From contig JBJEPI010000021.1 in assembly GCA_051881175.1 (NCBI GenBank), positions 1,448 to 65,447 of the forward strand: a DNA stretch of 64,000 bases, given 5' to 3'. The DNA comes from Eubacterium sp. GTDB lineage: Bacteria; Bacillota; Clostridia; Oscillospirales; Acutalibacteraceae. This document shows, piece by piece, positions 25,718 to 45,125 of the stretch (position 1 is the first letter of the stretch; every line of letters begins with the position of its first letter). Made by a program: the position numbers and the translations under genes. The notes under the pieces were generated by a model, which saw only the letters and a list, made by a program, of their open reading frames with translations, ran no database searches and was not told where the DNA came from.

Positions 25718-25837
25718 TAAAGTATACCTCCAAAATATTCTATTTTATTCTTTAATATAATAATATAAAATATTACTAAAGTAAAGAATTTGAACTAAAA
25801 AATAGTTTACAAATTGGTTAAAAAGCAAACAAAGAAA

Positions 25838-25860
25838 CAGACCGTCGTTAAGACGGTCTG
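25838..25860 (-). terminator. Terminator after the LRR/Cys-repeat surface protein gene
   Basis: Stem CAGACCGTC / GACGGTCTG, followed by a T-rich tract on the minus strand. Confidence 0.6.
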
Positions 25861-25892
25861 TCAAAGAACATATAGCATTTGCTTTTAAATCA

Positions 25893-28586
25893 TCATTCCT
25901 GTTCTTCGGCTGCAATTTCTTCCTTTGTTTTACCGCAGTTTTTGCAGGTATCCTCTTCATCATTTTCGCCGAAATCGTGGCCTGTGGCTGGGATTTGATA
26001 AAGCACATTGGTTTCACCGCAAACAGTACAAACATTGGCAACATATCCGTTCTGGGTGCAGGTTGCTTCAACAGTCTGTTCCTCCAAGGTGTGCTCAGGC
26101 TGTTTTTTTACTGCATTAATGATAATGGCAAAATCCTTGCCGTTAATTACACCGTCGCCGTTTGCGTCAACATAAGAGGTATTATCGGTGCCTGTGCGGT
26201 TAATAACCCTTGAATCTGCAAGAGACGGATTCCATTGTGCATAAACAAAACCGGGATCAACTGTTTCCTGTGTAAAGCAGTAAGTGCATCTGTAATGCAT
26301 TCCTGCACAATCAAGCTCACCGGTATAATTAAAGTTATGTCCGGCGGCAGGCACTGTGTTAATTCTTGTTGTTTTGCATATAGTACAGGTGTCCCTTGTT
26401 GTTCCGCTTAAATTGCAGGTTGGAGAGGTTAATTTTTCGTTGGTATAAAGCCCGTCAATCCATTCGTCATGGCGCATAGTGGCTGTTTGAGTTGTACCGC
26501 AGCGAGAACAGGTTGGCGTTACAAGTGAATGGCCGGGCTTATTCTCGTCGGTTAAGTCAACGGCAACATCCTTGTAATTATGGCCCAATGCAGGAATAGT
26601 AATTTCAAATTCAGAACCGCATACAGTACATACTGATACCGCACTGCCATCTTCAACACATGTTTCCTCGCTTATCACAATGTAATTACTCTCGTCAACA
26701 GTATGACCCAAGGCCGGAAGAGTTGATTGCTTTGTTGCGGTACAGCGTGAGCATTTGTAATAGTCGTATCCGCTTTCGGTACATGTTGGAGCCTTGCCGT
26801 TACCTTCAACAATAACATAGTCATGACCTAATGCGTCAATATTTTCCGACTTTGTCATTGTGCAATTTTGACAGCCGTAATAAATTTTACCGACAGCAGT
26901 ACATGTAGGCTCGGTTTGAGAGGTAACATACCATTCGTGCTGGCCGTTTGCAGGAATTGTTACGGTTCTCGTTTGACCGCAAACATCGCAAACATCCCTT
27001 TCTACACCGTCAATAACACAGTGTGCCTCACTGATAACCGTTGCCGTGTAATTACCCTCAACCCACTGGACATGGGTGGACTGAACAATCTGTTCGCCGC
27101 AGGTACGGCAGATGTACACTGTGTGAGTGTGTCCGTCTTCCTCGGTATTATCTATAACCTCCAAAATATCGGTATCGTCATAGGTATGGCCTAATGCCGG
27201 TATAGATTGGGTTATAGTTTCACCGCAGATAGTACAAACACCCTGTTGCTCACCTGCCTCTGTGCAGGTGGCTTCCTTGGTGACGGTATACTCTTCAACA
27301 TTATGCTTTCCCGAAGAAACCAAATGTGTTTCCGTGCGTGTACATCCTGTTACGGTGCAGGTATATTTTTCATATCCTGCCTTAACGCAGGTAGCGGTAT
27401 TCTCGTATGTATAATATCCGTCAATCCAAATGTAATTAGTGGCACCGTCGGTTAATTGCTGATGAGTTACAATATCTCTGGAGTCGCCGCATCTGGTGCA
27501 GGTTTCGGTTGTGTAAATATGGCCGTCGATAGCAGTATTATCAACAGTTTCCGTGGTTTCGTAGTTGTGGCCAAGGGCATCAATAGTGCTTTCCGAAATA
27601 ACAGCACCGCAATCATCGCAAACCCTTTGGCTTACACCTTCGTTAAGACATGTTGCCTCAACTGTAACAACCGTGCTTTGATTTAAGTGCTCACACTCAT
27701 CAAGAGATACAAAGGCATAACTGTTGGAGGATGCAAATTCTTCGGCTGTTGAGCCCTTATGGCCGTAAACAGTTATAGTTTGCTCAGAGCCGTTACATAC
27801 ATCTCCCGAAAGAGAGGTGTTTGGATTGTTAACAGTGAAGCTTGACAGGAAAACGCAATCGGCAAAGGCACGTGTGCCCACAGATGTAACACTATCCGGC
27901 AGTTCTACGGCGGTCATTTTGCACTTGAAAAATGACCACATGCTGACGGTGGCTACGTTTTCACCCCAATTAATTCTCTTAACACCGGCCTCGTAGAAGG
28001 CGTTTTCACCCGTTTCGGTAATACCTGAGCCGAATGTTACCGTTTCAAGGGCTGTGCATCCGGAAAAGCAACCGTATGAAAGGGTTGTAACGCTGTCCGG
28101 AAAAGTAATGCTTTTTAAAGATGTGCAATCTTTAAATGCACAGTTTTCAATAGTAGTAAGGTTTTCGGGCAGTGTGATTGATTGCAAGGATGTACAATTT
28201 TGGAAGCATCCGTAGCTGGTTGTCATGGTACCTGAACCGTGCAATGCTGTTAAGGTTGAGGGAAGAGAAACACTGACAAGGGCCGTGCAATTATAGAAAT
28301 TATAGTTGCCGATTTCAGTTATTCCCTCCTCAACAACAAGATTGGTAATATCTGATTTATAGCTCTCCCAAGGAGCCTTCGAGAGCATGGCATTATAATT
28401 TTTAGTAGCTCCTGTACCGCTGATTGTTAATGTTGTTGTGGCAGAATCATAGGACCAGGTTGCACTGTCACCGCAGCTTCCGGCGGTAGCGGCAACGACA
28501 GGCGTAACGCCCACCGACAGCATAGTTGTTATAGCGAATGTTAAAGTAAAAATAAAAGACAGAACTTTTGACATTTTTCCTTTCAT
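25893..28586 (-). CDS. Secreted multidomain protein: signal peptide, BspA-type leucine-rich repeats, about 8-9 Cys4 modules, one dockerin-like Ca-binding loop
   Basis: 897 aa. The hydrophobic N-terminus ends in VVAATA. LRR_5-like units include NCTSLQSITLP, DCTSLKSITFP and GCTALETVTF. Repeats follow the pattern TC...G.....C..CG......IPALGH.Y. Also contains DANGDGVINGKDF. Confidence 0.8.
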   Translation of the reverse strand: MKGKMSKVLSFIFTLTFAITTMLSVGVTPVVAATAGSCGDSATWSYDSATTTLTISGTGATKNYNAMLSKAPWESYKSDITNLVVEEGITEIGNYNFYNCTALVSVSLPSTLTALHGSGTMTTSYGCFQNCTSLQSITLPENLTTIENCAFKDCTSLKSITFPDSVTTLSYGCFSGCTALETVTFGSGITETGENAFYEAGVKRINWGENVATVSMWSFFKCKMTAVELPDSVTSVGTRAFADCVFLSSFTVNNPNTSLSGDVCNGSEQTITVYGHKGSTAEEFASSNSYAFVSLDECEHLNQSTVVTVEATCLNEGVSQRVCDDCGAVISESTIDALGHNYETTETVDNTAIDGHIYTTETCTRCGDSRDIVTHQQLTDGATNYIWIDGYYTYENTATCVKAGYEKYTCTVTGCTRTETHLVSSGKHNVEEYTVTKEATCTEAGEQQGVCTICGETITQSIPALGHTYDDTDILEVIDNTEEDGHTHTVYICRTCGEQIVQSTHVQWVEGNYTATVISEAHCVIDGVERDVCDVCGQTRTVTIPANGQHEWYVTSQTEPTCTAVGKIYYGCQNCTMTKSENIDALGHDYVIVEGNGKAPTCTESGYDYYKCSRCTATKQSTLPALGHTVDESNYIVISEETCVEDGSAVSVCTVCGSEFEITIPALGHNYKDVAVDLTDENKPGHSLVTPTCSRCGTTQTATMRHDEWIDGLYTNEKLTSPTCNLSGTTRDTCTICKTTRINTVPAAGHNFNYTGELDCAGMHYRCTYCFTQETVDPGFVYAQWNPSLADSRVINRTGTDNTSYVDANGDGVINGKDFAIIINAVKKQPEHTLEEQTVEATCTQNGYVANVCTVCGETNVLYQIPATGHDFGENDEEDTCKNCGKTKEEIAAEEQE

Positions 28587-28757
28587 AATATCACCCTTAT
28601 AACATAATTATACAAATTAATCATAACACATAAAGCATAAAATTTCAAGCAATAAACTATTTGATAAAAAAACAGTTATATTTTCTGTTTTGAAGTACTA
28701 TAATATAGAGGGGTAGCGAAACATCACAAATGCTGAAAGATGCGAATGTTTCGGCGG

Positions 28758-28973: not shown

Positions 28974-31169
28974 TTATATTTGATACCATTTAATTTCGTT
29001 GGCCTCAAGATGTAAATCAAAGCTGCTTCCGTCGCCGACATAAACAGTAGTATCCTGCGGCTCGTAGGTATTGTTAACCACGCAGTACTTACCGTTTTTA
29101 ACATAGGCATGCACCTCAACATTGTAGTTTGATGAGAACCAACGGTGGAGTTCATTCTCTGCCGAAGCGCTCCAAAGCACAGCACGATAAAGCACACGGC
29201 TGTTTTCAAAGGAATAAGGAAGACCGCTGATATAAACGCCCCTGCCCTTTCCAAACTCTTTAACCGCCATTTGAACCTCTGCCTCGTTTCTTACCATAAA
29301 CGGCAAAGGAGTGCAGTTTTGAACAAGCACCTGTGTACCCTCGAGAGCGACAATATTTTTCTTTCCCTCTCCGAAATCAATATTGCCGTTGTCGGTATCC
29401 TTCAGGATAAAGTGATCCCTATGCTCTTCAACATTGTATCTGTCGGTATTTAAAGCAAAGCCGTTTTCTCTTTCAACGCCTAAAACATCATCAAGCTGGA
29501 AAAATTTACCCTGCCATTGATGAGCGGCAGGCTCGCCTACGCCGATAAATCCGCCGCCGTTATACACAAATCTTTTAACGGCTGTTATTATTTCCTCGTC
29601 AATCCAGTATTCACCGCCTGATTGGGCTGTGTCCGCATCGCCCACATTGATAATAACGTCAAAGCTATCCAATAAATTTTTATCGTTTTTAATATCATCA
29701 AAGCTGATAAACGAAACATCAAAGGGGGCACCGCTCAGCGCCTCAATAATTCCAAAATAGGAATAATTTTGCCTATAATAAAGTCCGTGATGGACCATGT
29801 GATTGCCCCAAGAACGCATTTTACCCCAGCAATTAAGCACGGCTACGCGTTTAACACAATAAGGGGTTACGCCCTGAATATTGTCATAAAGGGTACGGAA
29901 TTCATCGCAAACATCTTTAATATAATCAACAAACTCGGGGAATTTCAGTGCAAGCTTTAGGTATCCGCCGTAGCCGATACGCTGAATAGGGCTTCTAAGT
30001 ATTGCCCGCCTTGCCGTTACCCAATTAACCTTTGCTTCTTTAATCGGATCTCCGCCCTCGTGGAATACATCGGGGAAGAAATAGGGCAAAAATCTGCCCT
30101 CGGTGTATTTAACATTTTTAATATCGCTGAAAAGTCTAAGAGTAGCGCCGTTGCCCACACTGCCTACAACAGCGTCAAGGCCGATTGATGCAAACTCATC
30201 CATAAAGGGCTCCATGCCAATCCAATGGTCGCCCATAAACATCATGGCTTCCTTGCCGTATTCGTGAACTATATCAACCATTTCCTTTGCAAGGGCGGCA
30301 ACCTCTCGCCTTTGGAATGCCTGAAAATCCTTAAATTCCTTGGACGGAATACGATAGGTGTTGTTCATATAACCCTGGTCAATAATGTATTCCGGGCGAA
30401 AAGCATAGCCAACCTCTTTTTCAAACTGCTGAAGAACATATGGGCTGACTGAGGCCGAATAGCCGAACCAATCAACATATTTTTCTCTGGCAAGCTCGTC
30501 GAAAACAAGGGTAAACTGATGGAAGAAAGTAGTAAATCTTACAACATCAACATATTGGTGTGTATCAAGAAATTTACGCAATCTTTCTAACGAATGGGCT
30601 CTTGTTTTAGGCTGACGAACATCAAAGGTAATTTGAGGCTCAACGTCCTTCCATTCGTTAACCACTGCATTGTACATGTGAACAGGGTCCCACATAATAT
30701 ATGCCAGAAAGCTTACTGTATACTCGTGAAAGGACTTGGCATTTGATATTGTTACATCTGTGGTCTCTTCGTTATATGCCCACTGACTTACAGGCACAAC
30801 CTCGCCGGTGGTGCGGTCAATAACCTCCCACCATTTTGTAATATCATCACGGCTGTTTACCTTTAGCATGTCGGGATAAAGGTGGTCCATAAGATGAATT
30901 TTAAGAGTATTATCAACCGCTGTGTGGAATGAGGTCATAATATACATCTGCTGAATTTCGTCAGGATTAGCCTTTGCCCAAGCGTTATCCTTTCGGGTTG
31001 TATAGTAGGTTGCATACACCTTTGCGCCGGCGTCCTTTAATTCCTGAGGGAACTCGGTTCCGTCACAATCACGAATTGCGTCTGCACCCCAAACATCCAT
31101 AATTTCCAGTGTTTCCTTTACTACATCCATATCGGTTGGAATAGTAACTCTTCCCTTTGTTTTTGCCAT
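28974..31169 (-). CDS. GH112 beta-galactoside phosphorylase (galacto-N-biose/lacto-N-biose or Gal-Rha phosphorylase family)
   Basis: 731 aa. It is collinear along its length with my recollection of Bifidobacterium LnpA: GADAIR..DGT, WEVIDRTTGEVV, EYTVSFLAYI.WDPV, VVRFTTFF.QFTL.FDE, GKEAMMF.GD.WIG.EP, KYTEGRFLPYFFPD, ARRAILRSPI.R.GYGGYL, GKGRGVYISGLPYS. Confidence 0.88.
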   Translation of the reverse strand: MAKTKGRVTIPTDMDVVKETLEIMDVWGADAIRDCDGTEFPQELKDAGAKVYATYYTTRKDNAWAKANPDEIQQMYIMTSFHTAVDNTLKIHLMDHLYPDMLKVNSRDDITKWWEVIDRTTGEVVPVSQWAYNEETTDVTISNAKSFHEYTVSFLAYIMWDPVHMYNAVVNEWKDVEPQITFDVRQPKTRAHSLERLRKFLDTHQYVDVVRFTTFFHQFTLVFDELAREKYVDWFGYSASVSPYVLQQFEKEVGYAFRPEYIIDQGYMNNTYRIPSKEFKDFQAFQRREVAALAKEMVDIVHEYGKEAMMFMGDHWIGMEPFMDEFASIGLDAVVGSVGNGATLRLFSDIKNVKYTEGRFLPYFFPDVFHEGGDPIKEAKVNWVTARRAILRSPIQRIGYGGYLKLALKFPEFVDYIKDVCDEFRTLYDNIQGVTPYCVKRVAVLNCWGKMRSWGNHMVHHGLYYRQNYSYFGIIEALSGAPFDVSFISFDDIKNDKNLLDSFDVIINVGDADTAQSGGEYWIDEEIITAVKRFVYNGGGFIGVGEPAAHQWQGKFFQLDDVLGVERENGFALNTDRYNVEEHRDHFILKDTDNGNIDFGEGKKNIVALEGTQVLVQNCTPLPFMVRNEAEVQMAVKEFGKGRGVYISGLPYSFENSRVLYRAVLWSASAENELHRWFSSNYNVEVHAYVKNGKYCVVNNTYEPQDTTVYVGDGSSFDLHLEANEIKWYQI

Positions 31170-31187
31170 AAAGCACCTCGCTGAATT

Positions 31188-32477
31188 TTATTTTTCGATT
31201 TTAATAATTTTGTTGTCTTTTAGAGTCATTTTACCGTGATTTCTCTTGCGAACAAACGGAACGCCCTTTCTGACATAGAAGGTATTGTTTGCAACATAAG
31301 CGTCGGGATTACTTGCAGGAGTCATGGTTCCGCTTAAGTCATCGTAGCTTAAATTATCGGTAAAGGTGTTATGAACCGCCTGCTGCATGCAAAACATCAT
31401 ACAACCGCCCTCGTTAAGCCTTGAGTAGTTATATTCATACTTTGTTCCGTCGCCGGAATCGGCATCGTAGGCCATACCGTCTTGATTGAGCTTTGTGTCA
31501 ACCGCTTCATTGTATCTAAGCAAAGCGTTTTTACATTTCCAGGGCCAAATAGCCGCCGCAACCTTGCCCATACGCTTTCCCGGGTAGCGATAAACTCTGT
31601 CATTCATTTCCGTTGCACAGGAATCGGATGTGTTATGTTCAACCAACGGATTTAAGGCATACATTGGTGTAATGGCGTCGCCGCCCACAAATTTTAAGTA
31701 ATTGTTTTTAATAAGAATATTTTCATTGCCGTATTTTTTGAACAGGTCTGCCTCCAATTCCTTAGAAGCAAATTTGTCATGGCAGTAGGTATAGCCTACG
31801 GCAATACCCCAACGGCTTACATTTTTAACGTAGCAACCCTCAACGGTTACGCCGTCATATCTTGCCACGCCGGTTTTTTCTTCGTTTTCGGGGGTAAAGG
31901 ATGTCATATAAATACCACCGTTATTCATGTGCTTGTTATACACGTTTCCGTTAACATCGTGAATATAAAGATTTTCAAGAACAATGCTATGCAGAGTTCC
32001 CCTGTTTTGTGCAACAACGGCAACGCCGGTTCTGTCCATTTTATCAGCGGCGGAATAATCGGTGTCGTTGCTGATATCCTTATTAACAATTTCAATATCA
32101 CGGATAATGATATTTTCAACATCATAAAGCAAAATCGCCGATGAAACATTGCCCCTGTAAACATGGTGGGGGGAATCAAGCTTTTTTCCGTAATCCTGAT
32201 ACCAAACGCCCTGACCGTTTGCAGAAATGCGGGGCATATCCTCACCCTCGCCGTAGGAAGCAATTTCTATTGCTTCGCCGTTAATGTCGCCGCAGGCTTT
32301 AAGGTGTAAAAACTGATTTTCAAAAACAGAGCCTTTTTCAAGCAACACCTTATCGCCGGCATTAAGGGCCGTTGAATTAATTTTATCAAGAGATAAAAAA
32401 GCGGTTTCTCTGCTTAGTCCGTCATTTGAATTATTGCCGTTAAGAGAGCTGACATAATATACTGTTGATTTCGTCAT
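31188..32477 (-). CDS. Right-handed parallel beta-helix repeat protein with no signal peptide
   Basis: 429 aa. YYVSS.NGNNSNDGLS...AF.SL is a typical beta-helix cap. It has repetitive hydrophobic/Asn ladders and no N-terminal hydrophobic segment. Confidence 0.6.
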   Translation of the reverse strand: MTKSTVYYVSSLNGNNSNDGLSRETAFLSLDKINSTALNAGDKVLLEKGSVFENQFLHLKACGDINGEAIEIASYGEGEDMPRISANGQGVWYQDYGKKLDSPHHVYRGNVSSAILLYDVENIIIRDIEIVNKDISNDTDYSAADKMDRTGVAVVAQNRGTLHSIVLENLYIHDVNGNVYNKHMNNGGIYMTSFTPENEEKTGVARYDGVTVEGCYVKNVSRWGIAVGYTYCHDKFASKELEADLFKKYGNENILIKNNYLKFVGGDAITPMYALNPLVEHNTSDSCATEMNDRVYRYPGKRMGKVAAAIWPWKCKNALLRYNEAVDTKLNQDGMAYDADSGDGTKYEYNYSRLNEGGCMMFCMQQAVHNTFTDNLSYDDLSGTMTPASNPDAYVANNTFYVRKGVPFVRKRNHGKMTLKDNKIIKIEK

Positions 32478-33047: not shown

Positions 33048-33082
33048 AAAAAATGAGCAGGTTTTTAACCTGCTCATTTTTA
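33048..33082 (-). terminator. Terminator after the membrane-protein pair
   Basis: Stem AATGAGCAGGTT / AACCTGCTCATT with flanking A/T runs. The left arm resembles the tsf-module terminators (ATGAGCAGGT). Confidence 0.6.
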
Positions 33083-33697: not shown

Positions 33698-33705
33698 AAT
33701 ACTGC

Positions 33706-37374: not shown

Positions 37375-38493
37375 TTATGCCTTTGTTGTAACCGCCTTAT
37401 ACTTTGACCAGCCTGAATAGTACTTAGTTCCGTTTACAACCTTGTAGGTGCGAACCCTTACATAATACTTTTTCTTAGCACTGAGGCCTGAAACAGACTT
37501 TGATGTGGTGCTGTTTTTTGTAATTGCAACGGTTTTAGCATTGCTGAAGCTACTGCTTGTTGAATACTGAACTTGATAGCCTGTTGTTTGGGTGGCCTGC
37601 TTGTTCCACTTAACAGTGAATTGCTTTGAGCCTGACGTCAGTGATGAAATACTTGTTCCCTTTGGTTTAATGTAGAAATACAAGGTCTTGGTTCCGCTGT
37701 AATTGCCCTTAAAGGTAATCTTAACGGCATATTTGCCGACATACTTTCTGCCGCTTGAGTATGAAACAGTGTAGTCAGTATTCTTAACAAGTGTTTTGCC
37801 TGTTCTGTCCTTAACTGTTACGGCAGGGGAATATACCTTGCCGCTGTATGTATAGCTTGTGCCCGAAAGCTTAATGCTTGACACTCTTGGAATTACTGTT
37901 AAAGAAAGTGTTTTATTACATACGCCGCAGACATCAGCTATCTTACCGTCGGCACTTGTTGTTGCTTTTGTGGTTTTAACCTCTCCGCATCTATGGGTGC
38001 AATTAATAACACCGTCAGAGCAATTGATTGTAGCATTCTTTAAGCAATCATTTCCTGTTTCGGCAATTTCGATTTTATTCCATTGGCTGATTGTATCTCT
38101 ATAAATCACATCACACAAATAATTGCAGGAATAAAATGCATCACTGCCTATATTTGTTACAGCCTTTGACATATAAACAACTACCAAGCTTTTACAATTG
38201 TAAAACGCACCGTTTCCAATAACAGTTACAGTGTCAGGTATAGTTAAATACACTAAACTGTTGCATTCTCTGAAAGATGAAACGCCTATACTTGATACAG
38301 TATATCCGTCAATGTCAGACGGAATAGTCAAATCGGTGGCTGAGCCTGTATATTCTTCTATTTCCACTGTATTGTCATCAAGCAGTACATATTCAAAATC
38401 ACCGCTTGATATTGCATAGGCTGATAAATCAATACCTGCGGTAATGCTTAACAGCATCGCAAACGATAATAATAAGCTCAATGTTTTTTTCAT
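37375..38493 (-). CDS. Secreted protein: BspA-type LRRs, CxxC module, Ig-like domain, fibronectin type III-like domain
   Basis: Start set at the ATG at 38493, preceded by AGGAGGG. Signal peptide MKKTLSLLLSFAMLLS. LRR units include ECNSLVYLTIPDTV and NCKSLVVVYM. The C-terminus is paralogous to 34724..36682, and KWNKQATQTTGYQVQYSTSS is FN3-like. Confidence 0.75.
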   Translation of the reverse strand: MKKTLSLLLSFAMLLSITAGIDLSAYAISSGDFEYVLLDDNTVEIEEYTGSATDLTIPSDIDGYTVSSIGVSSFRECNSLVYLTIPDTVTVIGNGAFYNCKSLVVVYMSKAVTNIGSDAFYSCNYLCDVIYRDTISQWNKIEIAETGNDCLKNATINCSDGVINCTHRCGEVKTTKATTSADGKIADVCGVCNKTLSLTVIPRVSSIKLSGTSYTYSGKVYSPAVTVKDRTGKTLVKNTDYTVSYSSGRKYVGKYAVKITFKGNYSGTKTLYFYIKPKGTSISSLTSGSKQFTVKWNKQATQTTGYQVQYSTSSSFSNAKTVAITKNSTTSKSVSGLSAKKKYYVRVRTYKVVNGTKYYSGWSKYKAVTTKA

Positions 38494-38562
38494 ATTATTC
38501 CCTCCTTGAAAATATGCAATTATTATTGCTGATAATATTTTAGCATATATCGTAGAATAACA

Positions 38563-38667
38563 CAAGAAAAATGAGCAGGTCGGTGACCTGCTCTTAAATG
38601 TTAGCTGTTGATTGCTTTGCTAAGTTTTTGCCGAACTTGGAATAAATAAAGGGTTTGAGATGTTTTT
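38563..38667 (-). repeat. tsf-3'-end-like module copy A (degenerate tsf end, terminator hairpin, -35 box)
   Basis: Minus strand reads CTTAGCAAAGCAATCAACAGCTAA CATTTAA GAGCAGGTC-ACC-GACCTGCTC ATTTTTCTTG. The distal part aligns loosely with the 42.78-42.83 kb module. Confidence 0.7.
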
Positions 38668-38668
38668 C

Positions 38669-39985
38669 TTATTCACTAATGTAAATATGTTTTGGATATG
38701 AATCTTTTATATTTTTCCATTCATTAATGTTGTCAAATGGATAATTACGTATATCCCTCATTTCTTTATCTGTCATAGATTTACAGTTTTCAAACATTGC
38801 GTTTGTAGATGTTAAACCGTACGAACCATTTTCTAAATATGCACAATTACTAATTAACAGACCTTGGGTTTTATCGCTTCCTACTATTGCTCCAACCTTT
38901 TTGTTAGTTCCGTTAGCGTCTATTTCTCCGGCATTATAGCAATTATGGACATTCAGGGTTTCATACTCATAATTCATTCCTACAATACCGCCAAAATATG
39001 CCATACATTGAATTGAATCCTCGGTAACATTTCCGGATATTTTTCCTGTATTTGCACAATTTTCTATTGTAACACTACCTAAACCATCTCCAAAAATTCC
39101 TCCAACATAACCTTTTGCAAAATAACCTTCGGGTAATGAATAACTACACTCGATCATTCCGCTATTTGTACTACTGTAAATCTTTATTTCTTCACTACGA
39201 CTATATCCAAACACTCCGCCAACTGTAGCATTTTCCGCACTGATTTTTCCTAAAAACTCACAGTTTTCTACTAATGTAATATCGTCGAAAGTAGAAGGGC
39301 AGCCTCCACATATACCACCTATGTTACAACCGAAATCACCCATTATTGGTTGAGCAGGTTGCGTGATTTCCATACTACTTTTACAATTTTTTATTATACC
39401 GATTGAGGTAGCACCGATTAATCCTCCGATATGCCAATATCCATCACTGTCAGTGAATTTAATTTTTCCTGAACTTGAACAATTTTCAATTTCTTTTGCA
39501 AAATCAGCTAAAGCGCCTAAATACTTGTCTCTATTAATATCGCAATCTGCTATATTCAAATATATATCAACATTTTCAACATTAAAATTGCAAATAATGT
39601 TAGCGGTTGAAAACAATCCGCTTTCTGTTGATTTCAAATTTGAGACGGTATAATTATTTCCGTCAAAGGTAGAATTGTTGCTAATACCCTCCCAATTGTC
39701 TATTGAACTTAAATCAATATCATTCATTAATATGTAATTTGCATCAACATTAAATGCAGCGTTTTTTAAATCATCTACAGTATAAATTCCTATATATCCG
39801 TTTGGTACCTCTGATAAATGTTCTATTTGACTTTCCGTGGTCTCTTCTGTTTCAGAAGTATTATCAACATGTGAACTGCTGTCTTCGTCAGTATTGTCTG
39901 CATTATTATAGCAGCCGTTTAATGACAAAAGTGCAAGTGCCGCTAAAGTTAAGCATAAAATAGATTTAACTTGTTTTCTTTTCAT
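38669..39985 (-). CDS. Lipoprotein with GLUG-like repeats
   Basis: Start set at the ATG at 39985, preceded by AGGAG. Lipobox LSLNGC, then an acidic/Ser-rich linker. Repeats include HIGGLIGAT, NIGGICGG, TVGGVFGYS, YVGGIFGDG and YFGGIVGMN. Confidence 0.75.
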   Translation of the reverse strand: MKRKQVKSILCLTLAALALLSLNGCYNNADNTDEDSSSHVDNTSETEETTESQIEHLSEVPNGYIGIYTVDDLKNAAFNVDANYILMNDIDLSSIDNWEGISNNSTFDGNNYTVSNLKSTESGLFSTANIICNFNVENVDIYLNIADCDINRDKYLGALADFAKEIENCSSSGKIKFTDSDGYWHIGGLIGATSIGIIKNCKSSMEITQPAQPIMGDFGCNIGGICGGCPSTFDDITLVENCEFLGKISAENATVGGVFGYSRSEEIKIYSSTNSGMIECSYSLPEGYFAKGYVGGIFGDGLGSVTIENCANTGKISGNVTEDSIQCMAYFGGIVGMNYEYETLNVHNCYNAGEIDANGTNKKVGAIVGSDKTQGLLISNCAYLENGSYGLTSTNAMFENCKSMTDKEMRDIRNYPFDNINEWKNIKDSYPKHIYISE

Positions 39986-40008
39986 TTTTTTACTCCTTAA
40001 ATTAAAAA

Positions 40009-40040
40009 ATGCGTACAGCCGAAGCCATACGCATAAAAAA
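40009..40040 (-). terminator. Intrinsic terminator inside the 5' leader of the GLUG lipoprotein gene (candidate attenuator)
   Basis: Minus strand reads ATGCGTATGGC-TTCG-GCTGTACGCAT followed by TTTTTAATTT. It ends about 15 nt before the AGGAG RBS. Confidence 0.55.
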
Positions 40041-40057
40041 CACATAGCTCAACTGTC

Positions 40058-40171
40058 GCCAAACAAAACCAATATGACATCAAAGAAGCATACTGAAATA
40101 GAGCATGTATTTTTATCAAGTGATAAAAATATTATGCTTCCGTAATGTCAAAGTATTCGGTTTTGTTTGGC
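40058..40171 (-). promoter_or_regulatory. 114-nt imperfect palindrome at the predicted 5' end of the lipoprotein mRNA
   Basis: Four nested helices: GCCAAACAAAACC/GGTTTTGTTTGGC, TGACAT/ATGTCA, GAAGCATA/TATGCTTC and ATTTTTATCA/TGATAAAAAT. Confidence 0.5.
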
Positions 40172-40202
40172 ATTTTCAGTTTAGCATATAATGTAAAAAA
40201 AT

Positions 40203-40268
40203 GCAAGAAAAATGAGCAGGTCGGTGACCTGCTCTTAAATGTTAGCCGTTGATTTGCTATGAAGAGTT
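40203..40268 (-). repeat. tsf-3'-end-like module copy B (plus promoter TTGCAT-17-TAAACT at 40178-40206)
   Basis: Minus strand reads AACTCTTCATAGCAAATCAACGGCTAA CATTTAA GAGCAGGTC-ACC-GACCTGCTC ATTTTTCTTGC. Confidence 0.75.
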
Positions 40269-40269
40269 T

Positions 40270-40605
40270 TTATATCAACTTTTTTATTGATTCAACAAAA
40301 TCGTTCATTTCATCAAAGATTACTTCAACGATAATTGACCAATTTATGCCCTCATAATCGTGGACAAGTCTGTGCCTTAAGCCGGCAACAACGCTCCATA
40401 TAATCTCAGGGTGTTCTTTTTTCATTTCATCGCTGATTTTATATACCTGTTCACCGATATTATACAAAGGTGTTGTAACTGCCCACTGTGAAAACTCGTC
40501 ATTCAAAAGCTGTTCCTTTGTAATTGAATGTTCTTTAATCTGTTTTTGCAAGGCTTCCCAAGTGGAAACAATCTTTTTAATTCTTTCGGTATCTGACTTT
40601 TTCAT
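40270..40605 (-). CDS. hepT: HepT-like (DUF86) RNase toxin of a type VII toxin-antitoxin pair
   Basis: 111 aa with the R....H.Y motif as GLRHRLVHDY. 4-nt overlap with the upstream nucleotidyltransferase gene. Confidence 0.8.
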   Translation of the reverse strand: MKKSDTERIKKIVSTWEALQKQIKEHSITKEQLLNDEFSQWAVTTPLYNIGEQVYKISDEMKKEHPEIIWSVVAGLRHRLVHDYEGINWSIIVEVIFDEMNDFVESIKKLI

Positions 40606-40892
40606 GCTATTTTAATTCCTTCTTCTATAACACTATCATAAAACGGTGTTGAACGGTCAACCTCGCATATTTCAAAAGCGTCAACACTTTTTCCCGTCAT
40701 TTGTCTTAACTCTTCTGCAAAGGCAAAGATATTTGACTTTTTAAAATTTTCACCACCGAAAACCAAAACATCTATGTCTGATTCTTCCGTTTCCTCTCCC
40801 CTTGCATACGAACCGAAAAGGAGTGCATATTCAGCATTGTAACGAACAAGCAGTTCTTTTATTGATTTTTCAACATCTGTTCTTGTTGGCAT
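40602..40892 (-). CDS. mntA: MNT-type minimal nucleotidyltransferase antitoxin
   Basis: GSYARGEETEESDIDVLV is the G[ST]x(n)DxD nucleotidyltransferase motif. The start is uncertain (40892 to 40934). Confidence 0.8.
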   Translation of the reverse strand: MPTRTDVEKSIKELLVRYNAEYALLFGSYARGEETEESDIDVLVFGGENFKKSNIFAFAEELRQMTGKSVDAFEICEVDRSTPFYDSVIEEGIKIA

Positions 40893-40963
40893 AAGCATTA
40901 CCCCTTTCATAGTTTCCATATTTATTATACACATAAACCAAAATTAAATCAACACATATTCTT

Positions 40964-41581
40964 TCAGGTAAGAACATCTAAAACATCACCGATTGTTTCA
41001 ACGGTATAGTCCGGCTGTTCTTCAATATTTTTTACGCTTTGATATTTTGCAAAGCCTTGACGAACCCAAATGGTTTTCATACCAAGCTGTTTAGCAGGGA
41101 CAATATCGTTATCAAGTCTGTCCCCTATCATAAATGCTTCGTTTGATTTACAGCCTGCCTGCTCAAGTGCAAGGTTAAATATTTTTAAATCAGGTTTAGC
41201 ACATCCTGCCTCTGCTGAAGCAACAACCACATAAAAGTATTTACCGATATCCCAATTATCAAGGCGTTGCTTTGTGCCCAAAGACTGATTAGCAATGATG
41301 CCGAGTTTATATTTCTTCGACAATATTTCTAACACCTGATTAGTATCTGAATACAGTTTTTCTAAACTTTTATCCCATTCGGGCAATTTAATATTATAAA
41401 AAGCACATGCCGTTTTTATTGCAGTTGCGCTGGTTTTGGCTGATTCATAAACCTTTGACAAAAATTCATCACGGTTTAATTCTTTTGAATTAACTGCAAA
41501 ATCTATCCTGCTGTTATAACATTCAGTTTCATCTACTAAGGTTGAACCTAAATCAAAAAACAGCCATTGAATATTTTCCAT
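40964..41581 (-). CDS. HAD-superfamily hydrolase, copy 1
   Basis: 205 aa. Motif I FFDLGSTLVD, motif III K at CAKPD, motif IV MIGDRLDNDI. Confidence 0.8.
   Translation of the reverse strand: MENIQWLFFDLGSTLVDETECYNSRIDFAVNSKELNRDEFLSKVYESAKTSATAIKTACAFYNIKLPEWDKSLEKLYSDTNQVLEILSKKYKLGIIANQSLGTKQRLDNWDIGKYFYVVVASAEAGCAKPDLKIFNLALEQAGCKSNEAFMIGDRLDNDIVPAKQLGMKTIWVRQGFAKYQSVKNIEEQPDYTVETIGDVLDVLT
41072..41581 (-). repeat. 510-bp near-identical duplication, copy 1 (partner 43948..44457)
   Basis: Constant offset of 2876 bp. I saw only two mismatches, at the L/I codon. Identity decays toward the 3' ends of the genes. Confidence 0.85.
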
Positions 41582-41596
41582 AAATTATCTCCAAAC

Positions 41597-42643
41597 TTAA
41601 GTTCTTATTTGCTCAAATGAATACATCGTTTGTGGGTTATCATCAAGGGTATTTATTGTAGTTAATGTGCAAGATGGATAAATAAAATCATCTCGTCCTG
41701 CACTGTATCCGCTGACGGAGCTTAACTGATAATATCTTCCGTTATAGAATGAACACATATTGTTGCTATGCTGATGACCGCAGGAAATAAGCGTAATATA
41801 TTCGTTATCTTTAATTACATTGTCAAACACATCATCATTTTTAATTTCATCATAAGGATATGTATTATACATATCAAAGCCGGCATATGCCTCTCCATTG
41901 TCATACGCAGTTTGGAAAGCGTTAGTCGGCATATGGAAAAATACGCTTGTTTTGACCTTACGGGCATTAACCTCATCATTAAGCCAATTTGCTTGATTTT
42001 CACTAATTGGCTGATATGAGCCTATTGCCTTTGGCTTTCTTGCACCGGAGTCCATAATTGCAACACTATGCACAAGCTTTTCATTGTAGTAAACATCTAT
42101 GACAAACTGCATTGAGCCGTCAATATTGTTTGAATTACCGTAAATAAAATGCTCATATTGCATCATAAATGCAATAATATCCTCATTGCTGCCGTCAATT
42201 TCGAAATCGTTATTTCCCGGTGCAAAGGTCCATGGAGTATCGTATTCCTCGATAAGATTTGCAAACAAATCAATAGCTCCGAATTTATCATAATTGCTCT
42301 TCAAATTGAAGCCGTCAACTAAATCTCCGTTTACAACAATAAGGTCACAGGGTGTTTTGTCTAAAATTACCCTTAAATCCTCAAGAGTATGCTTATCATC
42401 CTCGCACACACCGTCAAAGAAATGAGTATCATTAATCTTTAAGACTTTGAAAATGCCGTTGTCATCGGTTGATAATTTAACTTGGTCTGCACTGTAAACA
42501 GTATCGTAGCTGTTAGTTGCATTTGACTTATCGCAGTTAAATCTGTAAAGCAAATATCCGCCGAAAGAGCCGACTGCAATTAGTACAATTGCCAAAATTA
42601 TTGCTATTACTTTTACAATTAGTTTCTTTTTGCTTTTTTGCAT
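41597..42643 (-). CDS. Membrane-anchored calcineurin-like metallophosphoesterase
   Basis: 348 aa. N-terminal transmembrane helix, with DTH, GDLVDG, GNNDFE and GHQH motifs. Confidence 0.8.
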   Translation of the reverse strand: MQKSKKKLIVKVIAIILAIVLIAVGSFGGYLLYRFNCDKSNATNSYDTVYSADQVKLSTDDNGIFKVLKINDTHFFDGVCEDDKHTLEDLRVILDKTPCDLIVVNGDLVDGFNLKSNYDKFGAIDLFANLIEEYDTPWTFAPGNNDFEIDGSNEDIIAFMMQYEHFIYGNSNNIDGSMQFVIDVYYNEKLVHSVAIMDSGARKPKAIGSYQPISENQANWLNDEVNARKVKTSVFFHMPTNAFQTAYDNGEAYAGFDMYNTYPYDEIKNDDVFDNVIKDNEYITLISCGHQHSNNMCSFYNGRYYQLSSVSGYSAGRDDFIYPSCTLTTINTLDDNPQTMYSFEQIRT

Positions 42644-42717
42644 AGTAATCCTCCTAAAAAAATTAAATTATCAAAAACATTTCTTTATTATTAGATTAAC
42701 ACAACAATAATTCTATA

Positions 42718-42878
42718 GCAAGAAAAAAGAGCATCTCGTTTGAGATGCTCTTGAATGTTAGCCGTTGATTTGCTTTGCGAAGTTTTTTGCTGAAAGCACG
42801 GTATATCAATGGTTTCGAGCATTTTTGAATTTTCATTTACGCAACTTTTACGCAAGATTTAAGAACTTTTTACGCAAC
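42718..42878 (-). repeat. tsf-3'-end-like module copy C (terminator, -35 box, tsf end, and distal module with three TTTACGCA boxes)
   Basis: Minus strand reads AACTTCGCAAAGCAAATCAACGGCTAA CATTCAA GAGCATCTC-AAAC-GAGATGCTC TTTTTTCTTGC. Upstream of this lies TGCGTAAA x3. Confidence 0.8.
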
Positions 42879-42898
42879 CGATATTTTAGAAAACCACA

Positions 42899-43699
42899 TC
42901 ATATACTATTTGATTCCGGTAATTTATAATCAAATGATTTTCTTTTATTAAGATTTTTACCGTTTCTGTTATTAACCGAATTATCGTGCCATGTAGTTAT
43001 GTTTGTTAAACAGGATTTTATAAATACTTCTTTATATATCTCTATACACTCCTGTGTTCCGTTAAAATTATAACCATGTATCACAGGCTCTTTACCGTCA
43101 AGAAAAAGTTTTCGTAGTTCAAAAGCATTAAGCGCATTATTATCAAAATCGGTAAAATATGTATTAAAAGACGGATCAAATATTACCCATTTATCCTTGT
43201 CGCTTAAATAAGCATGAACCACTAAATGACATCCAAAACCTTCATAATTTTTATCACCTATAAGAGCAACAGGATATGCCTTTATTCCACAAGCAAGCAA
43301 AATGTCTGCAAAAGCAATTGCTTTATATCTGCAATTTATGGCGTTCTTGAAAGGCTTTTTATAAGCATATTCAAGAATATCAAGCGTATTATCTGATATA
43401 AGCTTATACTGCATACCGAAATAATAAGTTGAGTCCGTAAGCCACTGCATTAATGAAAGTGCTTTTTCAAAATCGGCTTGTCCTTTTGTATAATTATCAA
43501 GACAATATTTTTCTTTAATAATCTTATAATCATCTATGTAAGAAAATAAATTATTATAATCTGTTTCTTTAAGGTCTTTTATATCGCCTACTGAAAGTGG
43601 AGGAAATTTTGTAGTATCGGTGTTCTTAATTACTTCAATATATTTGTCAACACTTTGATACTTTTTGAATTTAATCGGATAAAATATTTCTCTAAACAA
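42899..43699 (-). CDS. Transglutaminase-like (papain-fold) domain protein
   Basis: 266 aa. A Cys...His...Asp arrangement: NCRYKAIAFADILLACGIKAYPV, GCHLVVHAY, WVIFDPS. It has an apparent TTG start, and its RBS abuts module copy D directly. Confidence 0.6.
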   Translation of the reverse strand: MFREIFYPIKFKKYQSVDKYIEVIKNTDTTKFPPLSVGDIKDLKETDYNNLFSYIDDYKIIKEKYCLDNYTKGQADFEKALSLMQWLTDSTYYFGMQYKLISDNTLDILEYAYKKPFKNAINCRYKAIAFADILLACGIKAYPVALIGDKNYEGFGCHLVVHAYLSDKDKWVIFDPSFNTYFTDFDNNALNAFELRKLFLDGKEPVIHGYNFNGTQECIEIYKEVFIKSCLTNITTWHDNSVNNRNGKNLNKRKSFDYKLPESNSI

Positions 43700-43717
43700 A
43701 ATAATTCTTACTCCTTA

Positions 43718-43828
43718 ATTTGCTTTGCGAAGTTTTTTGATAAAAGCACGGTATATCAAGGGTTTCGAGCGTTTTTGAATTTTCATTTACGCAACTTTTA
43801 CGCAATTTGTTTTAATAATTTACGCAGC
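43718..43828 (-). repeat. Partial module copy D (distal module only, three TTTACGCA boxes, truncated within the tsf-like core)
   Basis: 43718-43806 aligns with 42768-42856 with few mismatches. The tsf-like part stops at CTTCGCAAAGCAAAT and runs into TAAGGAG. Confidence 0.8.
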
Positions 43829-43842
43829 ACTTTCATAAATAG

Positions 43843-44457
43843 TCAAAATAAATTTACGATTTTGTCAATTGTTTCAATAGTGTAATCAGGTTGTTCATCA
43901 TTACCTTTAACACTTTGGTATTTTGCAAAGCCTTGGCGTACCCAGACGGTTTTCATACCAAGCTGTTTAGCAGGGACAATATCGTTATCAAGTCTGTCCC
44001 CTATCATAAATGCTTCGTTTGATTTACAGCCTGCCTGCTCAAGTGCAAGGTTAAATATTTTTAAATCAGGTTTAGCACATCCTGCCTCTGCTGAAGCAAC
44101 AACCACATAAAAGTATTTACCGATATCCCAATTATCAAGGCGTTGCTTTGTGCCCAAAGACTGATTAGCAATGATGCCGAGTTTATATTTCTTCGACAAT
44201 ATTTCTAACACCTGATTAGTATCTGAATACAGTTTTTCTAAACTTTTATCCCATTCGGGCAATTTAATATTATAAAAAGCACATGCCGTTTTTATTGCAG
44301 TTGCGCTGGTTTTGGCTGATTCATAAACCTTTGACAAAAATTCATCACGGTTTAATTCTTTTGAATTAACTGCAAAATCTATCCTGCTGTTATAACATTC
44401 AGTTTCATCTACTAAGGTTGAACCTATGTCAAAAAACAGCCATTGAATATTTTCCAT
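43843..44457 (-). CDS. HAD-superfamily hydrolase, copy 2
   Basis: 204 aa. Identical to copy 1 over about 170 aa except L11I. The last ~30 aa diverge. Confidence 0.8.
   Translation of the reverse strand: MENIQWLFFDIGSTLVDETECYNSRIDFAVNSKELNRDEFLSKVYESAKTSATAIKTACAFYNIKLPEWDKSLEKLYSDTNQVLEILSKKYKLGIIANQSLGTKQRLDNWDIGKYFYVVVASAEAGCAKPDLKIFNLALEQAGCKSNEAFMIGDRLDNDIVPAKQLGMKTVWVRQGFAKYQSVKGNDEQPDYTIETIDKIVNLF
43948..44457 (-). repeat. 510-bp near-identical duplication, copy 2 (partner 41072..41581)
   Basis: See copy 1. Confidence 0.85.
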
Positions 44458-44521
44458 ATATGTACCTCCGATTTAGCTTTGAACAATCATGGACTGTCCC
44501 CGATTGTACAAACATGACCTA

Positions 44522-44977
44522 TTATAAAATTTTTTTAATCCATTCTCCGTTTTCCTGCTTCCACTGAAATTCCTGTAAATCATCGCTTTGAAAAATCTCA
44601 AACATTTCTTCAAAATCACTTGCTAGTTTATAATTTTTCAGTTCTTCCGGTTTTATCCAAAAAACCTTACCCTCAGCTGAAGATTTCAGTTCACCGCTAA
44701 ATTCATTCGTTTTATAAAAGAACACAATATAGCGAATCTTTTTATTTATCTGCCACTGTTTTACACCGCATATTTTAGGCTTTTTAATATCAAGTCCCGT
44801 TTCCTCTTTTATCTCCCGTATTACAGATTCAACGATGCTTTCCTCTTTTTCAATATGTCCGCCGGGAAATGTTACGCCGCCCCACAATTTACTAACTCTG
44901 TCCTGAACTAAAATATTACCGTCATCATCATATATCATACACATATTTGTAAGCTCGGTTTTCTCATAATTACGCAT
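44522..44977 (-). CDS. NUDIX hydrolase
   Basis: 151 aa. Nudix box GGHIEKEESIVESVIREIKEETGL. Confidence 0.85.
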   Translation of the reverse strand: MRNYEKTELTNMCMIYDDDGNILVQDRVSKLWGGVTFPGGHIEKEESIVESVIREIKEETGLDIKKPKICGVKQWQINKKIRYIVFFYKTNEFSGELKSSAEGKVFWIKPEELKNYKLASDFEEMFEIFQSDDLQEFQWKQENGEWIKKIL

Positions 44978-45042
44978 ATATTCTCCTCTTTTTTCATTAA
45001 TATTCCTGTCATTATCAGTTTATCATACAAGTCGGGGAATGG

Positions 45043-45125
45043 CAAGAAAAAAGAGCAGGTTGCTGACCTGCTCTTGATTGTTATAAAATTAGCCGTTGAT
45101 TTGCTTTGCGATTTCCTCTGCGAAG
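45043..45125 (-). repeat. Native tsf 3' end, terminator and promoter (reference copy E of the module)
   Basis: Minus strand reads AACTTCGCAGAGGAAATCGCAAAGCAAATCAACGGCTAA, then the stem AGAGCAGGT/ACCTGCTCT, then TTTTTCTTGCC. The promoter is TTGCCA-17-TAAACT. Confidence 0.85.

Follow-up and report, generated by a model that had tools for sequence, protein, structure and literature searches.

Small gene cassettes delimited by repeats of the tsf 3′ end in the tsf–pyrH interval of a gut Oscillospirales bacterium

The locus and its composition

The window analysed here is a stretch of 64,000 nucleotides (nt) from a Eubacterium sp. of the Acutalibacteraceae (contig JBJEPI010000021.1, assembly GCA_051881175.1), and the subject of this report is the DNA that lies in it between tsf, which encodes EF-Ts, and pyrH, in particular five small cassettes next to tsf that are delimited by duplicates of that gene's final bases. 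From the tsf stop (45089) to the pyrH start (25717) there are 19,371 bases, which hold 18 open reading frames (ORFs) on the minus strand and one plus-strand gene for a helix-turn-helix (HTH) protein of 82 aa, none of them related to translation. A first-pass annotation, made by reading the sequence, had described these genes as accessory DNA set between members of a conserved gene string, and as to the separation (19.4 kb), the accessory nature of the interval and the identity of the flanking genes it was right. In addition to the four genes listed below, uppS, dxr, rseP, ispG and polC were verified in the window, and cdsA is identified from the Pfam annotation of L084, a near-identical contig; from polC through murT every gene is on the minus strand.

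46091-46834, minus strand: rpsB (Pfam/NCBIfam)
45089-46027, minus strand: tsf, EF-Ts of 312 aa, the short form (PF00889, 6.8e-61)
25007-25717, minus strand: pyrH (AA_kinase)
24439-24993, minus strand: frr (TIGR00496)

Relatives were gathered by a scan with the tsf protein, taking one genome per species, which gave 80 loci labelled as uncultured Oscillospirales (Eubacterium sp. CAG:251, Firmicutes CAG:341, E. coprostanoligenes, Acutalibacteraceae); these and other contigs are referred to by L numbers. The interval falls into two composition classes. At 38614-45088 the GC content is 0.335, as against 0.415 outside the interval and a minimum of 0.393 among 127 flank windows of 6.5 kb, which bears out the AT-richness that had been remarked on by eye for 38.6-44.5 kb. 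At third codon positions the cassette genes have a GC content (GC3) of 0.21-0.37 versus 0.37-0.45 for core genes, and the overall GC content of the cassettes is 0.29-0.36, comparable to the L012, L007 and L006 loci (0.35-0.37). The pyrH-side genes (LRR/dockerin, GH112, LnbX) are host-like at 0.42-0.45, with a further AT-rich patch at 33.0-34.7 kb. Scans with Pfam, NCBIfam and PADLOC found no recombinase, transposase, relaxase, phage or conjugation genes among the interval genes, and the window contains no tRNA or tmRNA genes, no Rfam families and no tandem repeats.

Repeats of the tsf end

The tsf-proximal part of the interval is punctuated by a repeat unit, recognised by repeat search and alignment, which consists of a CGCAAAGCAAATCAACGGCTAA core, then a terminator hairpin and then a tail of ~40 nt. 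The copies, O0 to O5, are as follows.

45089-45111, minus strand: O0 core, the last 23 nt of tsf, read as the attachment core
45019-45088, minus strand: right side of O0, with the terminator A hairpin (45053-45073; fold -15.2 kcal/mol, z -4.0) and a promoter-like tail (TTGC..N17..TATGATAAACT)
43708-43730, minus strand: O1′, a degenerate tsf-end copy (CGCAAAGCAAATTAAGGAGTAA) without terminator, spanned by contig L083
42715-42780, minus strand: O2, an exact 23-nt tsf-end copy (42758-42780), terminator B (42727-42752; fold -17.0 kcal/mol) and tail, spanned by contig L174
40180-40264, minus strand: O3, a tsf-end copy (40242-40264), terminator A (40214-40234) and promoter-like tail (repeat alignment and fold)
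38539-38623, minus strand: O4, a tsf-end copy (38601-38623, with one deletion and 1-2 substitutions), terminator A (38573-38593) and tail (repeat alignment and fold)
37227-37288, minus strand: O5 remnant, a terminator-B-like hairpin (37267-37288; fold -14.1 kcal/mol) and tail TTGTTGAACTGCAGTTAGCTATATGTTAAAATCTC, with no recognisable core

These repeats are confined to the interval. The 16-mer GCAAATCAACGGCTAA occurs exactly three times in the whole 64 kb and the terminator hairpin pattern four times (0.02 expected), in each case only between tsf and pyrH. All of the hairpins fold at -14 to -18 kcal/mol (z -4 to -5.7), and every tail carries TTGnnn-N17-T(A/G)TGnTAA(A/T)(A/C)T, which from its sequence would be a promoter with an extended -10 box. 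The internal copies all share the left flank GCAAAAA(A)CTT where tsf itself reads GAGGAAATCGCAAAG; because this flank is unlike real tsf, the copies are junctions that run from a cassette end through the core into tsf-downstream sequence. The mutated end of O1′ now reads as an AAGGAG ribosome-binding site for the next gene. The O5 remnant is homologous to positions 34-146 of L084 and stands directly upstream of an MGMT-like gene; it is the original downstream side of tsf. The first-pass annotation had looked for a tsf-like repeat at the pyrH border and had correctly reported none there, but the tsf-end copies inside the interval, which mark out five units, were overlooked. In length the repeats of the window are 75-119 nt, and in L012 O0 and one internal copy are identical (100%) over 69 nt.

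The five cassettes

The repeats divide 37.3-45.1 kb into five units of 0.9-2.5 kb with 1-4 genes, each bounded by core copies and containing cargo only.

43731-45088 (body 43731-45018), minus strand: cassette 1, with a NUDIX hydrolase (44522-44977), the HAD hydrolase HAD2 (43843-44457) and a 96-nt element (43731-43826) (Pfam/NCBIfam); contig L081 crosses O0
42781-43707, minus strand: cassette 2, with a transglutaminase-like protein (42899-43699; PF01841) and a 96-nt element (42781-42876)
40265-42757 (body 40265-42714), minus strand: cassette 3, with the following four genes (Pfam/NCBIfam)
41597-42643, minus strand: membrane-anchored metallophosphoesterase
40964-41581, minus strand: HAD1 hydrolase
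40602-40934, minus strand: MntA-like nucleotidyltransferase antitoxin
40270-40605, minus strand: HepT-like RNase toxin
38624-40241 (body 38624-40179), minus strand: cassette 4, a GLUG-motif lipoprotein (PF07581; ORF 38669-40045, likely start 39985) with a signal/lipobox-like N-terminus
37289-38600 (body 37289-38538), minus strand: cassette 5, a secreted BspA-LRR + fn3 protein (ORF 37375-38565, likely start 38493), absent from L084

The two copies of the 96-nt element, which form the ends of cassettes 1 and 2, are 86% identical and contain three TTGCGTAAA repeats; this 9-mer occurs six times in the window (1.3 expected), and five of the six are within the two elements. The HepT and MNT genes, candidates for a type VII toxin-antitoxin pair, are adjacent, overlap by 4 nt and match PF01934 (6.4e-18) and PF18765 (3.9e-14), with NCBIfam equivalog scores of 39.5 and 49.5, below the cut-off of 60. 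PADLOC returned candidate-level hits only, for the NUDIX (PDC-S07) and MNT (PDC-S09) proteins, and a reading of the array as a defence island was set aside on that account. A plasmid or phage origin was likewise dropped, there being no DNA match in phage or plasmid collections, and look-ups of the exact GLUG, HepT and MNT proteins returned nothing on record.

The HAD1 and HAD2 genes, although in different cassettes, are 96% identical over 602 nt (94% at the amino acid level) and diverge only at their 3′ ends; one gene may have been duplicated recently, or the two may be alternative versions of a single cassette gene. Assemblers are also likely to break at this pair. Conceivably, the array does not exist in any one genome, and cassettes from several co-resident species were chained together in assembly through shared repeats of 70-120 nt; the GC content of the cassettes does resemble that of other species, and contigs of the same sample in Logan do break at the repeats. 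Other contigs of that sample make such an artefact improbable: L081 (100%) joins this tsf allele to NUDIX-HAD2, L083 joins the 96-nt element through O1′ to the transglutaminase gene, and L174 crosses O2 and takes in terminator B, the phosphoesterase and the first part of HAD1. Moreover, similar arrays are found in metagenome-assembled genomes from unrelated studies (L012, L016, L115, L125).

Exchange of cassettes between species

The cassettes move independently, and identities that run up to the repeats point to recent exchange. The transglutaminase cassette (window 43676 to 42777) is identical to its counterpart in L012 at 889 of 900 aligned columns (~99%), or by blastn at 97.2% over 1,006 nt (42719-43716), whereas rpsB-tsf of the two genomes is only 83.7% identical. 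The near-identity extends no further than the stop codon of the tsf-end copy. Past that point comes, in the window, terminator B (the type native to tsf in L034, L007 and L065) and, in L012, terminator A, 100% identical to the L012 tsf end over -22 to +46; the window tsf itself now carries a type A terminator. Similarly, the HepT/MNT pair is 91.1% identical at the nucleotide level to that of L003 (rpsB-tsf, 83.5%), where it stands directly after tsf and again ends in a core and terminator B. Further tsf-end copies bound cassettes in L012 (three extra), L013, L016, L034, L084, L115 and L125.

Alternative junctions at the repeats occur in public pig-gut and digester metagenome runs, denoted X1, X2 and X4 and searched as contigs. 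A contig of X4 joins 42756 to 45088, giving tsf, core, terminator B and cassette 3; a contig of X1 joins 43805 to 45043 and is without NUDIX-HAD2; and contigs of both X2 and X4 join 45111 to 40270. Each run holds only 15-21% of the 31-mers from 38.5-45.2 kb.

The tsf gene itself exists in two forms in the clade, one of 312 aa (the window and the CAG:341 group) and one of 371 aa (E. coprostanoligenes-like genomes), which differ by an internal indel of 59 aa, at ~45289-45426 of the window as compared with L034, L037, L048 and L065. L034, the closest relative by its flanks, has the long form. Since the window protein is 91% identical to that of the CAG:341 group and ~67% to that of L034, import of tsf together with the cassettes was suspected; it was rejected, as nucleotide identity across tsf is 80-84% to L034 and 84% to L007, the protein gap being mostly the 59-aa indel.

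An Xer-like integrase at the tsf site in relatives

Pooled Pfam and PHROGs scans of 102 interval ORFs from the relatives returned very diverse, mostly metabolic families and a single integrase, with a PHROGs match, at L015:11181-12083. It is a tyrosine recombinase of 300 aa (PF00589, 6e-42) which is XerC/XerD/XerA-like while remaining under each family cut-off; the closest solved structure is XerA, and nothing in phage or plasmid collections reaches 50% identity. A motif scan for serine recombinases in the relatives' intervals found none, this tyrosine enzyme being the only recombinase there. Its gene converges on tsf. In L015 and L038, which belong to different tsf lineages, the element, which supplies a terminator of its own, begins immediately past the tsf stop codon; the two are 91% identical over a blastn high-scoring pair of 561 nt that includes the tsf 3′ end, with ~12 mismatches, counted by eye, in ~360 nt past the stop codon.

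A metagenome scan with the L015 integrase protein yielded 80 loci. In 22 of these (at least 91% amino acid identity) the stop codon of the integrase lies 243-244 nt from a core ending in ...CAAATCAACGGCTAA, and this core is the real end of tsf in 18, spread over three tsf backgrounds, one of short form (89-91%), one of long form (64%, with rpsB at 96-99%) and a third at 81%. From one locus to the next, conservation is limited to the integrase gene with ~200 nt upstream and to the arm, and no two loci have the same cargo. In L115 tsf and the integrase element are separated by a 2.26-kb cassette (HAD, cupin and a RelE/Phd-like pair), two non-tsf cores are present in L125, and both contigs contain tandem junctions of cassette and integrase element. 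Within 10 kb no second core copy was found inside the integrase-bearing islands, whose far ends were not seen. The human-gut locus L102, with its tsf-type integrase at 9998-10900, carries as cargo (105-5540) an RHS/YD-repeat toxin, a spare RHS core-domain fragment and small downstream ORFs, which looks like polymorphic-toxin cargo. In L027 (Eubacterium sp. CAG:251) and L022 a TTGCGTAAA arm stands 136-175 nt after tsf, with no intact integrase ORF found; only short minus-strand ORFs are present there in L027, and both arms look like decayed integrase elements.

The window cassettes are tied to this family of tsf-type integrase elements by a 20-mer, TTGCGTAAAAGTTGCGTAAA, which is common to the two alone. 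In the window it occurs at 43786-43805 and 42836-42855, inside the 96-nt elements; its other occurrences are confined to the arms of tsf-type elements (at 23 integrase loci and in L015, L027 and L038), the L012 copy and the same-sample contigs L082 and L083.

The age of the break and the pyrH border

The first-pass annotation took the string to have been split in this genome by acquired DNA. Synteny gives a different picture. Window proteins were mapped onto the 37 loci that have at least 9.3 kb of sequence after tsf, one for each species, and tsf and pyrH are adjacent in one of them only (L048, 137 nt apart); in 10 they are separated by 2.2-9.8 kb, and in the other 26, which include all the more distant family members in the set, there is no pyrH within ~10 kb of tsf. 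As the relatives show gaps or no nearby pyrH, the break in the string is ancestral and widespread, and thus old in the clade (Oscillospirales: Acutalibacteraceae / [Eubacterium] coprostanoligenes group).

The tsf-pyrH intervals of the relatives are highly variable, with 242 ORFs falling into 180 clusters. Certain small genes recur beside tsf in shuffled order, namely HAD, NUDIX, HIT-like, SGNH-like, nucleoside-phosphorylase-like, MNT/HepT, transglutaminase-like, MGMT and GNAT; the HIT-like, SGNH-like and nucleoside-phosphorylase-like labels, as well as the zinc-ribbon/TM2 labels, were assigned by eye from sequence and not by family search. At the pyrH border of the window stand two features.

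25836-28586, minus strand: BspA-type LRR protein with dockerin (25893-28586) and terminator (25836-25862; fold -18.3 kcal/mol)
25007-25835, minus strand: pyrH with a 118-nt AT-rich leader; blastn alignments reach 25785-25824 in L005, L007, L020, L024, L036 and L048

The LRR/dockerin gene, a fast-evolving surface-protein gene (668-913 aa), stands before pyrH in every locus whose pyrH side can be seen, near-conspecific contigs included; nine genomes have this arrangement (L007, L016, L023, L024, L025, L036, L065, L075 and the window). Because it adjoins pyrH across the clade, the pyrH border is ancestral and not the decayed end of an island, as had been offered in explanation of its lack of a repeat. 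The pyrH leader is kept in relatives regardless of the upstream neighbour, and in L048 it is the entire tsf-pyrH spacer. Since the LRR gene has a strong terminator and the leader is conserved whatever lies upstream, the sequence favours a promoter of its own for pyrH. Two metatranscriptome runs, which hold only scattered frr/pyrH contigs and nothing across 25644-26580, are uninformative on this point.

The inherited block and the strain-specific module

Between the cassettes and the LRR/dockerin gene lie three further sets of genes.

34724-37214, minus strand: MGMT-family protein of 103 aa (36903-37214) and a secreted protein of 652 aa without family (34724-36682), 88% identical to L084 at the nucleotide level
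33049-34723, mixed strands: strain-specific AT-rich module (1.65 kb, GC ~0.33), absent from L084
34340-34588, plus strand: Xre-type HTH protein of 82 aa in this module, divergent from the zinc-ribbon gene
33706-34227, minus strand: zinc-ribbon protein of 173 aa, in the AT-rich module
33080-33697, minus strand: protein of 205 aa, in the AT-rich module
28974-32892, minus strand: LnbY-like chaperone (32440-32892), GH136 LnbX-like lacto-N-biosidase domain (31188-32477) and GH112 lacto-N-biose phosphorylase (28974-31169), 93.8% identical to L084 at the nucleotide level

A sister lineage is available in Logan contigs of other samples that carry an identical pyrH protein, among them L084. Nucleotide identity to it is 92.4% over pyrH-frr-uppS-cdsA together with the LRR gene, 93.8% over GH112-LnbX-LnbY and 88% over the 652-aa and MGMT-like genes. 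As its GC content is host-like and its identity to the sister lineage (88-94%) equals that of the flanking core genes, the 25.9-37.2 kb half has been inherited vertically; that is, the MGMT-like gene, the 652-aa surface protein and the GH136/LnbY/GH112 module descend within the species group. In L034, which of the relatives is closest in its flanks (80% at the nucleotide level over tsf to murT), the order is LRR-fn3, 652-aa gene, LnbY, and the 652-aa protein is 58% identical in amino acids.

These comparisons decide the fate of the simplest account of the locus, in which a single island of ~19 kb was acquired and its pyrH-side border has decayed. One block of co-oriented accessory genes between two core genes would fit such an event, and the tsf-proximal part is indeed compositionally foreign. 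Nevertheless, a single island is highly improbable: the DNA is of two composition classes, the 11.6 kb on the pyrH side are present in the sister lineage at core-gene divergence and in part, in the same order, in L034, the LRR/dockerin gene is beside pyrH across the clade, and the internal tsf-end repeats split the remainder into five units of different distribution. In place of one island there are five small cassettes and an inherited pyrH half, and the further suggestion of the first-pass annotation, that the two halves differ in origin, stands.

The GH112 protein scores 947 bits against TIGR02336 (equivalog cut-off 560). The match of the GH136 LnbX-like protein to NF047897 (2.7e-95) covers only the catalytic part, with 320 bits against a cut-off of 2500, and that of the LnbY-like protein to NF047894 is weak (1.4e-9); the interval contains no transporter gene for the locus. 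By sequence, the module suggests use of lacto-N-biose/mucin or milk glycans by a pig-gut Oscillospirales bacterium. The GH136 protein, of 429 aa, has no obvious signal peptide, and the LnbX-like and LnbY-like genes overlap.

The MGMT-family protein stands alone, with PCYR in place of the canonical PCHR active-site motif, and in L008, L009 and L084 its homologue comes first or second among the genes that follow tsf or a tsf-end copy. In L009 and L008 the gene follows tsf. In L084, which lacks the LRR-fn3 gene, there is a tsf-end copy 40 nt before the MGMT-like gene; a DUF2442 gene lies directly upstream of the MGMT-like gene and is followed by a tsf-end copy and terminator 94% identical to window 45113-45043. 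The ancestral state had the MGMT-like gene directly after the tsf terminator. The 652-aa and LRR-fn3 genes share a segment of 188 nt at 73% identity near their C-termini (34749-34936 and 37685-37872), which suggests a common C-terminal domain with a possible role in anchoring.

The AT-rich module stands in place of ~100 nt of intergenic DNA in L084, and comparison with that contig reveals no target duplication or insertion scar around 33.0-34.7 kb. It has a perfect TTGACA-17-TATAAT promoter (34301-34273), a 23-nt palindrome (34247-34297) and a terminator (33049-33081), and could be a small module of toxin/defence type.

Origin of the array

The interval is best read as a composite of three layers: the old tsf-pyrH break with its LRR/dockerin gene, the vertically inherited block, and the cassettes, which have probably accreted at an attachment site in tsf after the manner of cis-mobilisable elements (CIMEs). 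The evidence shows the first two layers and, for the third, its anatomy, the near-identity across species that ends at cores, the alternative junctions and the site-specific placement of integrase elements in relatives. The last ~15-23 nt of tsf would be the attachment site, at which five cassettes without an integrase were added one after another, each addition leaving a tsf-end copy followed by a terminator and promoter-like tail. Since the copy comes with both, each cassette would be insulated from tsf and have its own start signal. If new units entered next to tsf, the LRR-fn3 unit would be the oldest; its GC3, 0.36, is the nearest to the host among the cassettes. Movement most likely occurs by looping out and re-insertion through core-by-core recombination. 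The catalyst would be an Xer-like tyrosine integrase encoded on a larger island, such as those found at this site in relatives, and acting in trans; an enzyme supplied in trans would make the cassettes behave like CIMEs. To this part of the proposal, excision and re-insertion with the integrase in trans, we give about even odds. RecA-dependent recombination between the 70-120-nt repeats may contribute, and the cassettes may be remnants or satellites of tsf-site integrase elements.

Several observations weigh against accretion by such an integrase. A tblastn search found no homologue of the integrase in the 64-kb window, and no interval ORF has a recombinase domain. The integrase of human-gut type was not found in four pig-gut/digester runs that hold the cassettes, where only conserved fragments of related enzymes appear. 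No circular or excised form of a cassette was seen in metagenome contigs, these and not reads being what was searched. For the order of the cassettes across the HAD1/HAD2 duplicate and the 96-nt repeats the window assembly is the source; Logan contigs of the same sample confirm only the O0, O1′ and O2 junctions and the stretch from 37377 to 24257. As for the enzyme, it has no arm-binding domain, and integrases at the 3′ ends of tRNA-Pro (L112, L117, L140, L121) and tmRNA-like genes (L101, L107, L113, L141) are 90-96% identical to it in amino acids (89-96% between classes overall), while the arms differ fully, with TTGCGTAAA repeats at tsf versus TACCCC repeats at tRNA-Pro/tmRNA. As near-identical integrases at other targets have unrelated arms, the TTGCGTAAA repeats may not be integrase sites. 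Sequence does not separate the integrases of the three target genes: within the tsf class (L094-L124) identity is 90-100%, and only 3-4 residues are diagnostic of class.

Repeats of 70-120 nt are, moreover, long enough for exchange by RecA alone. Homologous recombination might then account for everything, the tsf end with its terminator and promoter being a portable patch of homology at which DNA taken up from related species crosses over. This would sit well with the length of the repeats (69 nt at 100% in L012, 75-119 nt in the window), with the lack of an integrase in the window and with the X1 junction 43805|45043, which is at the edge of a repeat unit and not in the core. It leaves the first tsf-end duplication without explanation, though, and the integrase elements abut the stop codon exactly with unrelated sequence downstream, so that at least those insertions are site-specific. 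Furthermore, the 20-mer signature of the integrase elements is in two window cassettes, and in independent cassettes homology repeatedly has its left edge at -15 to -24 relative to the stop codon. On balance, recombination by RecA only is a serious contender for the shuffling of the cassettes and seems rather unlikely as the whole explanation.

Beyond accretion in this one genome, the tsf 3′ end might be the docking site of an integron-like gene-capture platform in gut Clostridia, with cassettes of 1-2.5 kb, a 300-aa Xer-like recombinase in trans and a terminator and promoter delivered with each insertion. We regard this wider proposal as doubtful. Were it true, the near-identical recombinases at tRNA-Pro/tmRNA with unrelated arms would mean that choice of target is set by the DNA of the element (core and arm repeats) and not by the protein.

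Comparison with known systems

Of the marks of a genomic island placed by a tyrosine integrase, the array has direct repeats that duplicate the 3′ end of its target, a composition unlike the host's and, among relatives, presence/absence break points at the repeats; an integrase gene inside the element, beside an att site, occurs only in relatives (L015, L038 and 22 metagenome loci). CIMEs and a three-step model of their accretion are described in PMC5704250, with elements related to ICESt1/ICESt3 at fda of Streptococcus thermophilus as an example. Like the window cassettes, they lack integrase and transfer genes and keep their att repeats, are stacked one behind another at a housekeeping gene's 3′ end, which is repeated at each junction, and share their site with related integrase-bearing elements. 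The window array differs in its target, tsf, in its far smaller units (0.9-2.5 kb) and in the terminator and promoter-like tail within the repeat; the associated recombinase, in relatives, is Xer-like with 300 aa, and no conjugation or mobilisation genes were seen. The ssrA-specific islands of Dehalococcoides are ~12 kb or more, 16 of 31 having an integration module (PMC3146451). As at the tsf site, many different islands occupy one 3′ end of a single-copy gene, the histories of integration module and cargo are discordant, and the site is a major source of strain-level diversity; the window units, in contrast, have no integration module and their target is a protein gene.

Staphylococcal cassette chromosome (SCC) and pseudo-SCC elements insert at the 3′ end of rlmH (orfX) by means of large serine recombinases (Ccr) and are 10-60 kb in size, some composite elements being without recombinase genes and dependent on recombinases in trans. 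The composites share with the window array a tandem arrangement of elements bounded by direct repeats that contain the last bases of a conserved gene, but the motif scan found no serine recombinase in the relatives' intervals. Tycheposons of Prochlorococcus target tRNA genes, are larger and include cargo-only satellites; they too are arrayed in tandem at island hotspots, with partial target-gene copies as their boundaries. The pdif modules of Acinetobacter plasmids, which have inverted XerC/D sites and use host XerCD, resemble the cassettes in being small, with Xer-type sites at their ends and a content of toxin-antitoxin pairs and accessory genes.

Integron arrays have folded attC sites, imperfectly palindromic and carrying R″/R′ boxes, at the ends of their cassettes, a single Pc promoter and IntI next to attI. 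The likenesses are the co-oriented units of small size, most with one or two genes and all with a recombination site at the end, the fixed docking site beside the array, cassettes common to several species and a recombinase of the Xer/IntI branch. Unlike in integrons, the window repeat copies the target gene's end, there is a terminator and a promoter for each unit, and no recombinase gene adjoins the array. By eye, the repeat alignment has no attC features; it is a tsf end followed by an ordinary hairpin, with no GTTRRRY partner downstream. Identity with integrons was therefore rejected, the repeat not being attC, the window having no integrase and the relatives' enzyme scoring 99 bits against the integron integrase TIGR02249, for which the cut-off is 265. 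What appears to be new here is tsf as target, very small units, a terminator and promoter in each repeat and an Xer-like enzyme; we found no paper that names tsf as an att site.

Significance

A gene string that is conserved in Firmicutes according to the textbooks is not conserved in a large branch of the Oscillospirales, where the tsf-pyrH junction is a gene-turnover hotspot. An apparently undescribed attachment site is formed by the last 15-23 nt of tsf; a family of Xer-like integrases uses this site in human-gut bacteria, and very small integrase-free cassettes make up a pool that passes between species in pig and human gut communities. Their cargo comprises nucleotide house-cleaning enzymes, a putative toxin-antitoxin pair and surface proteins. 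Being short and well defined, the cassettes and their cores offer a tractable system for the movement of recombinase-less genes among uncultured gut anaerobes, and may shed light on the use of three unrelated target genes by nearly identical integrases.

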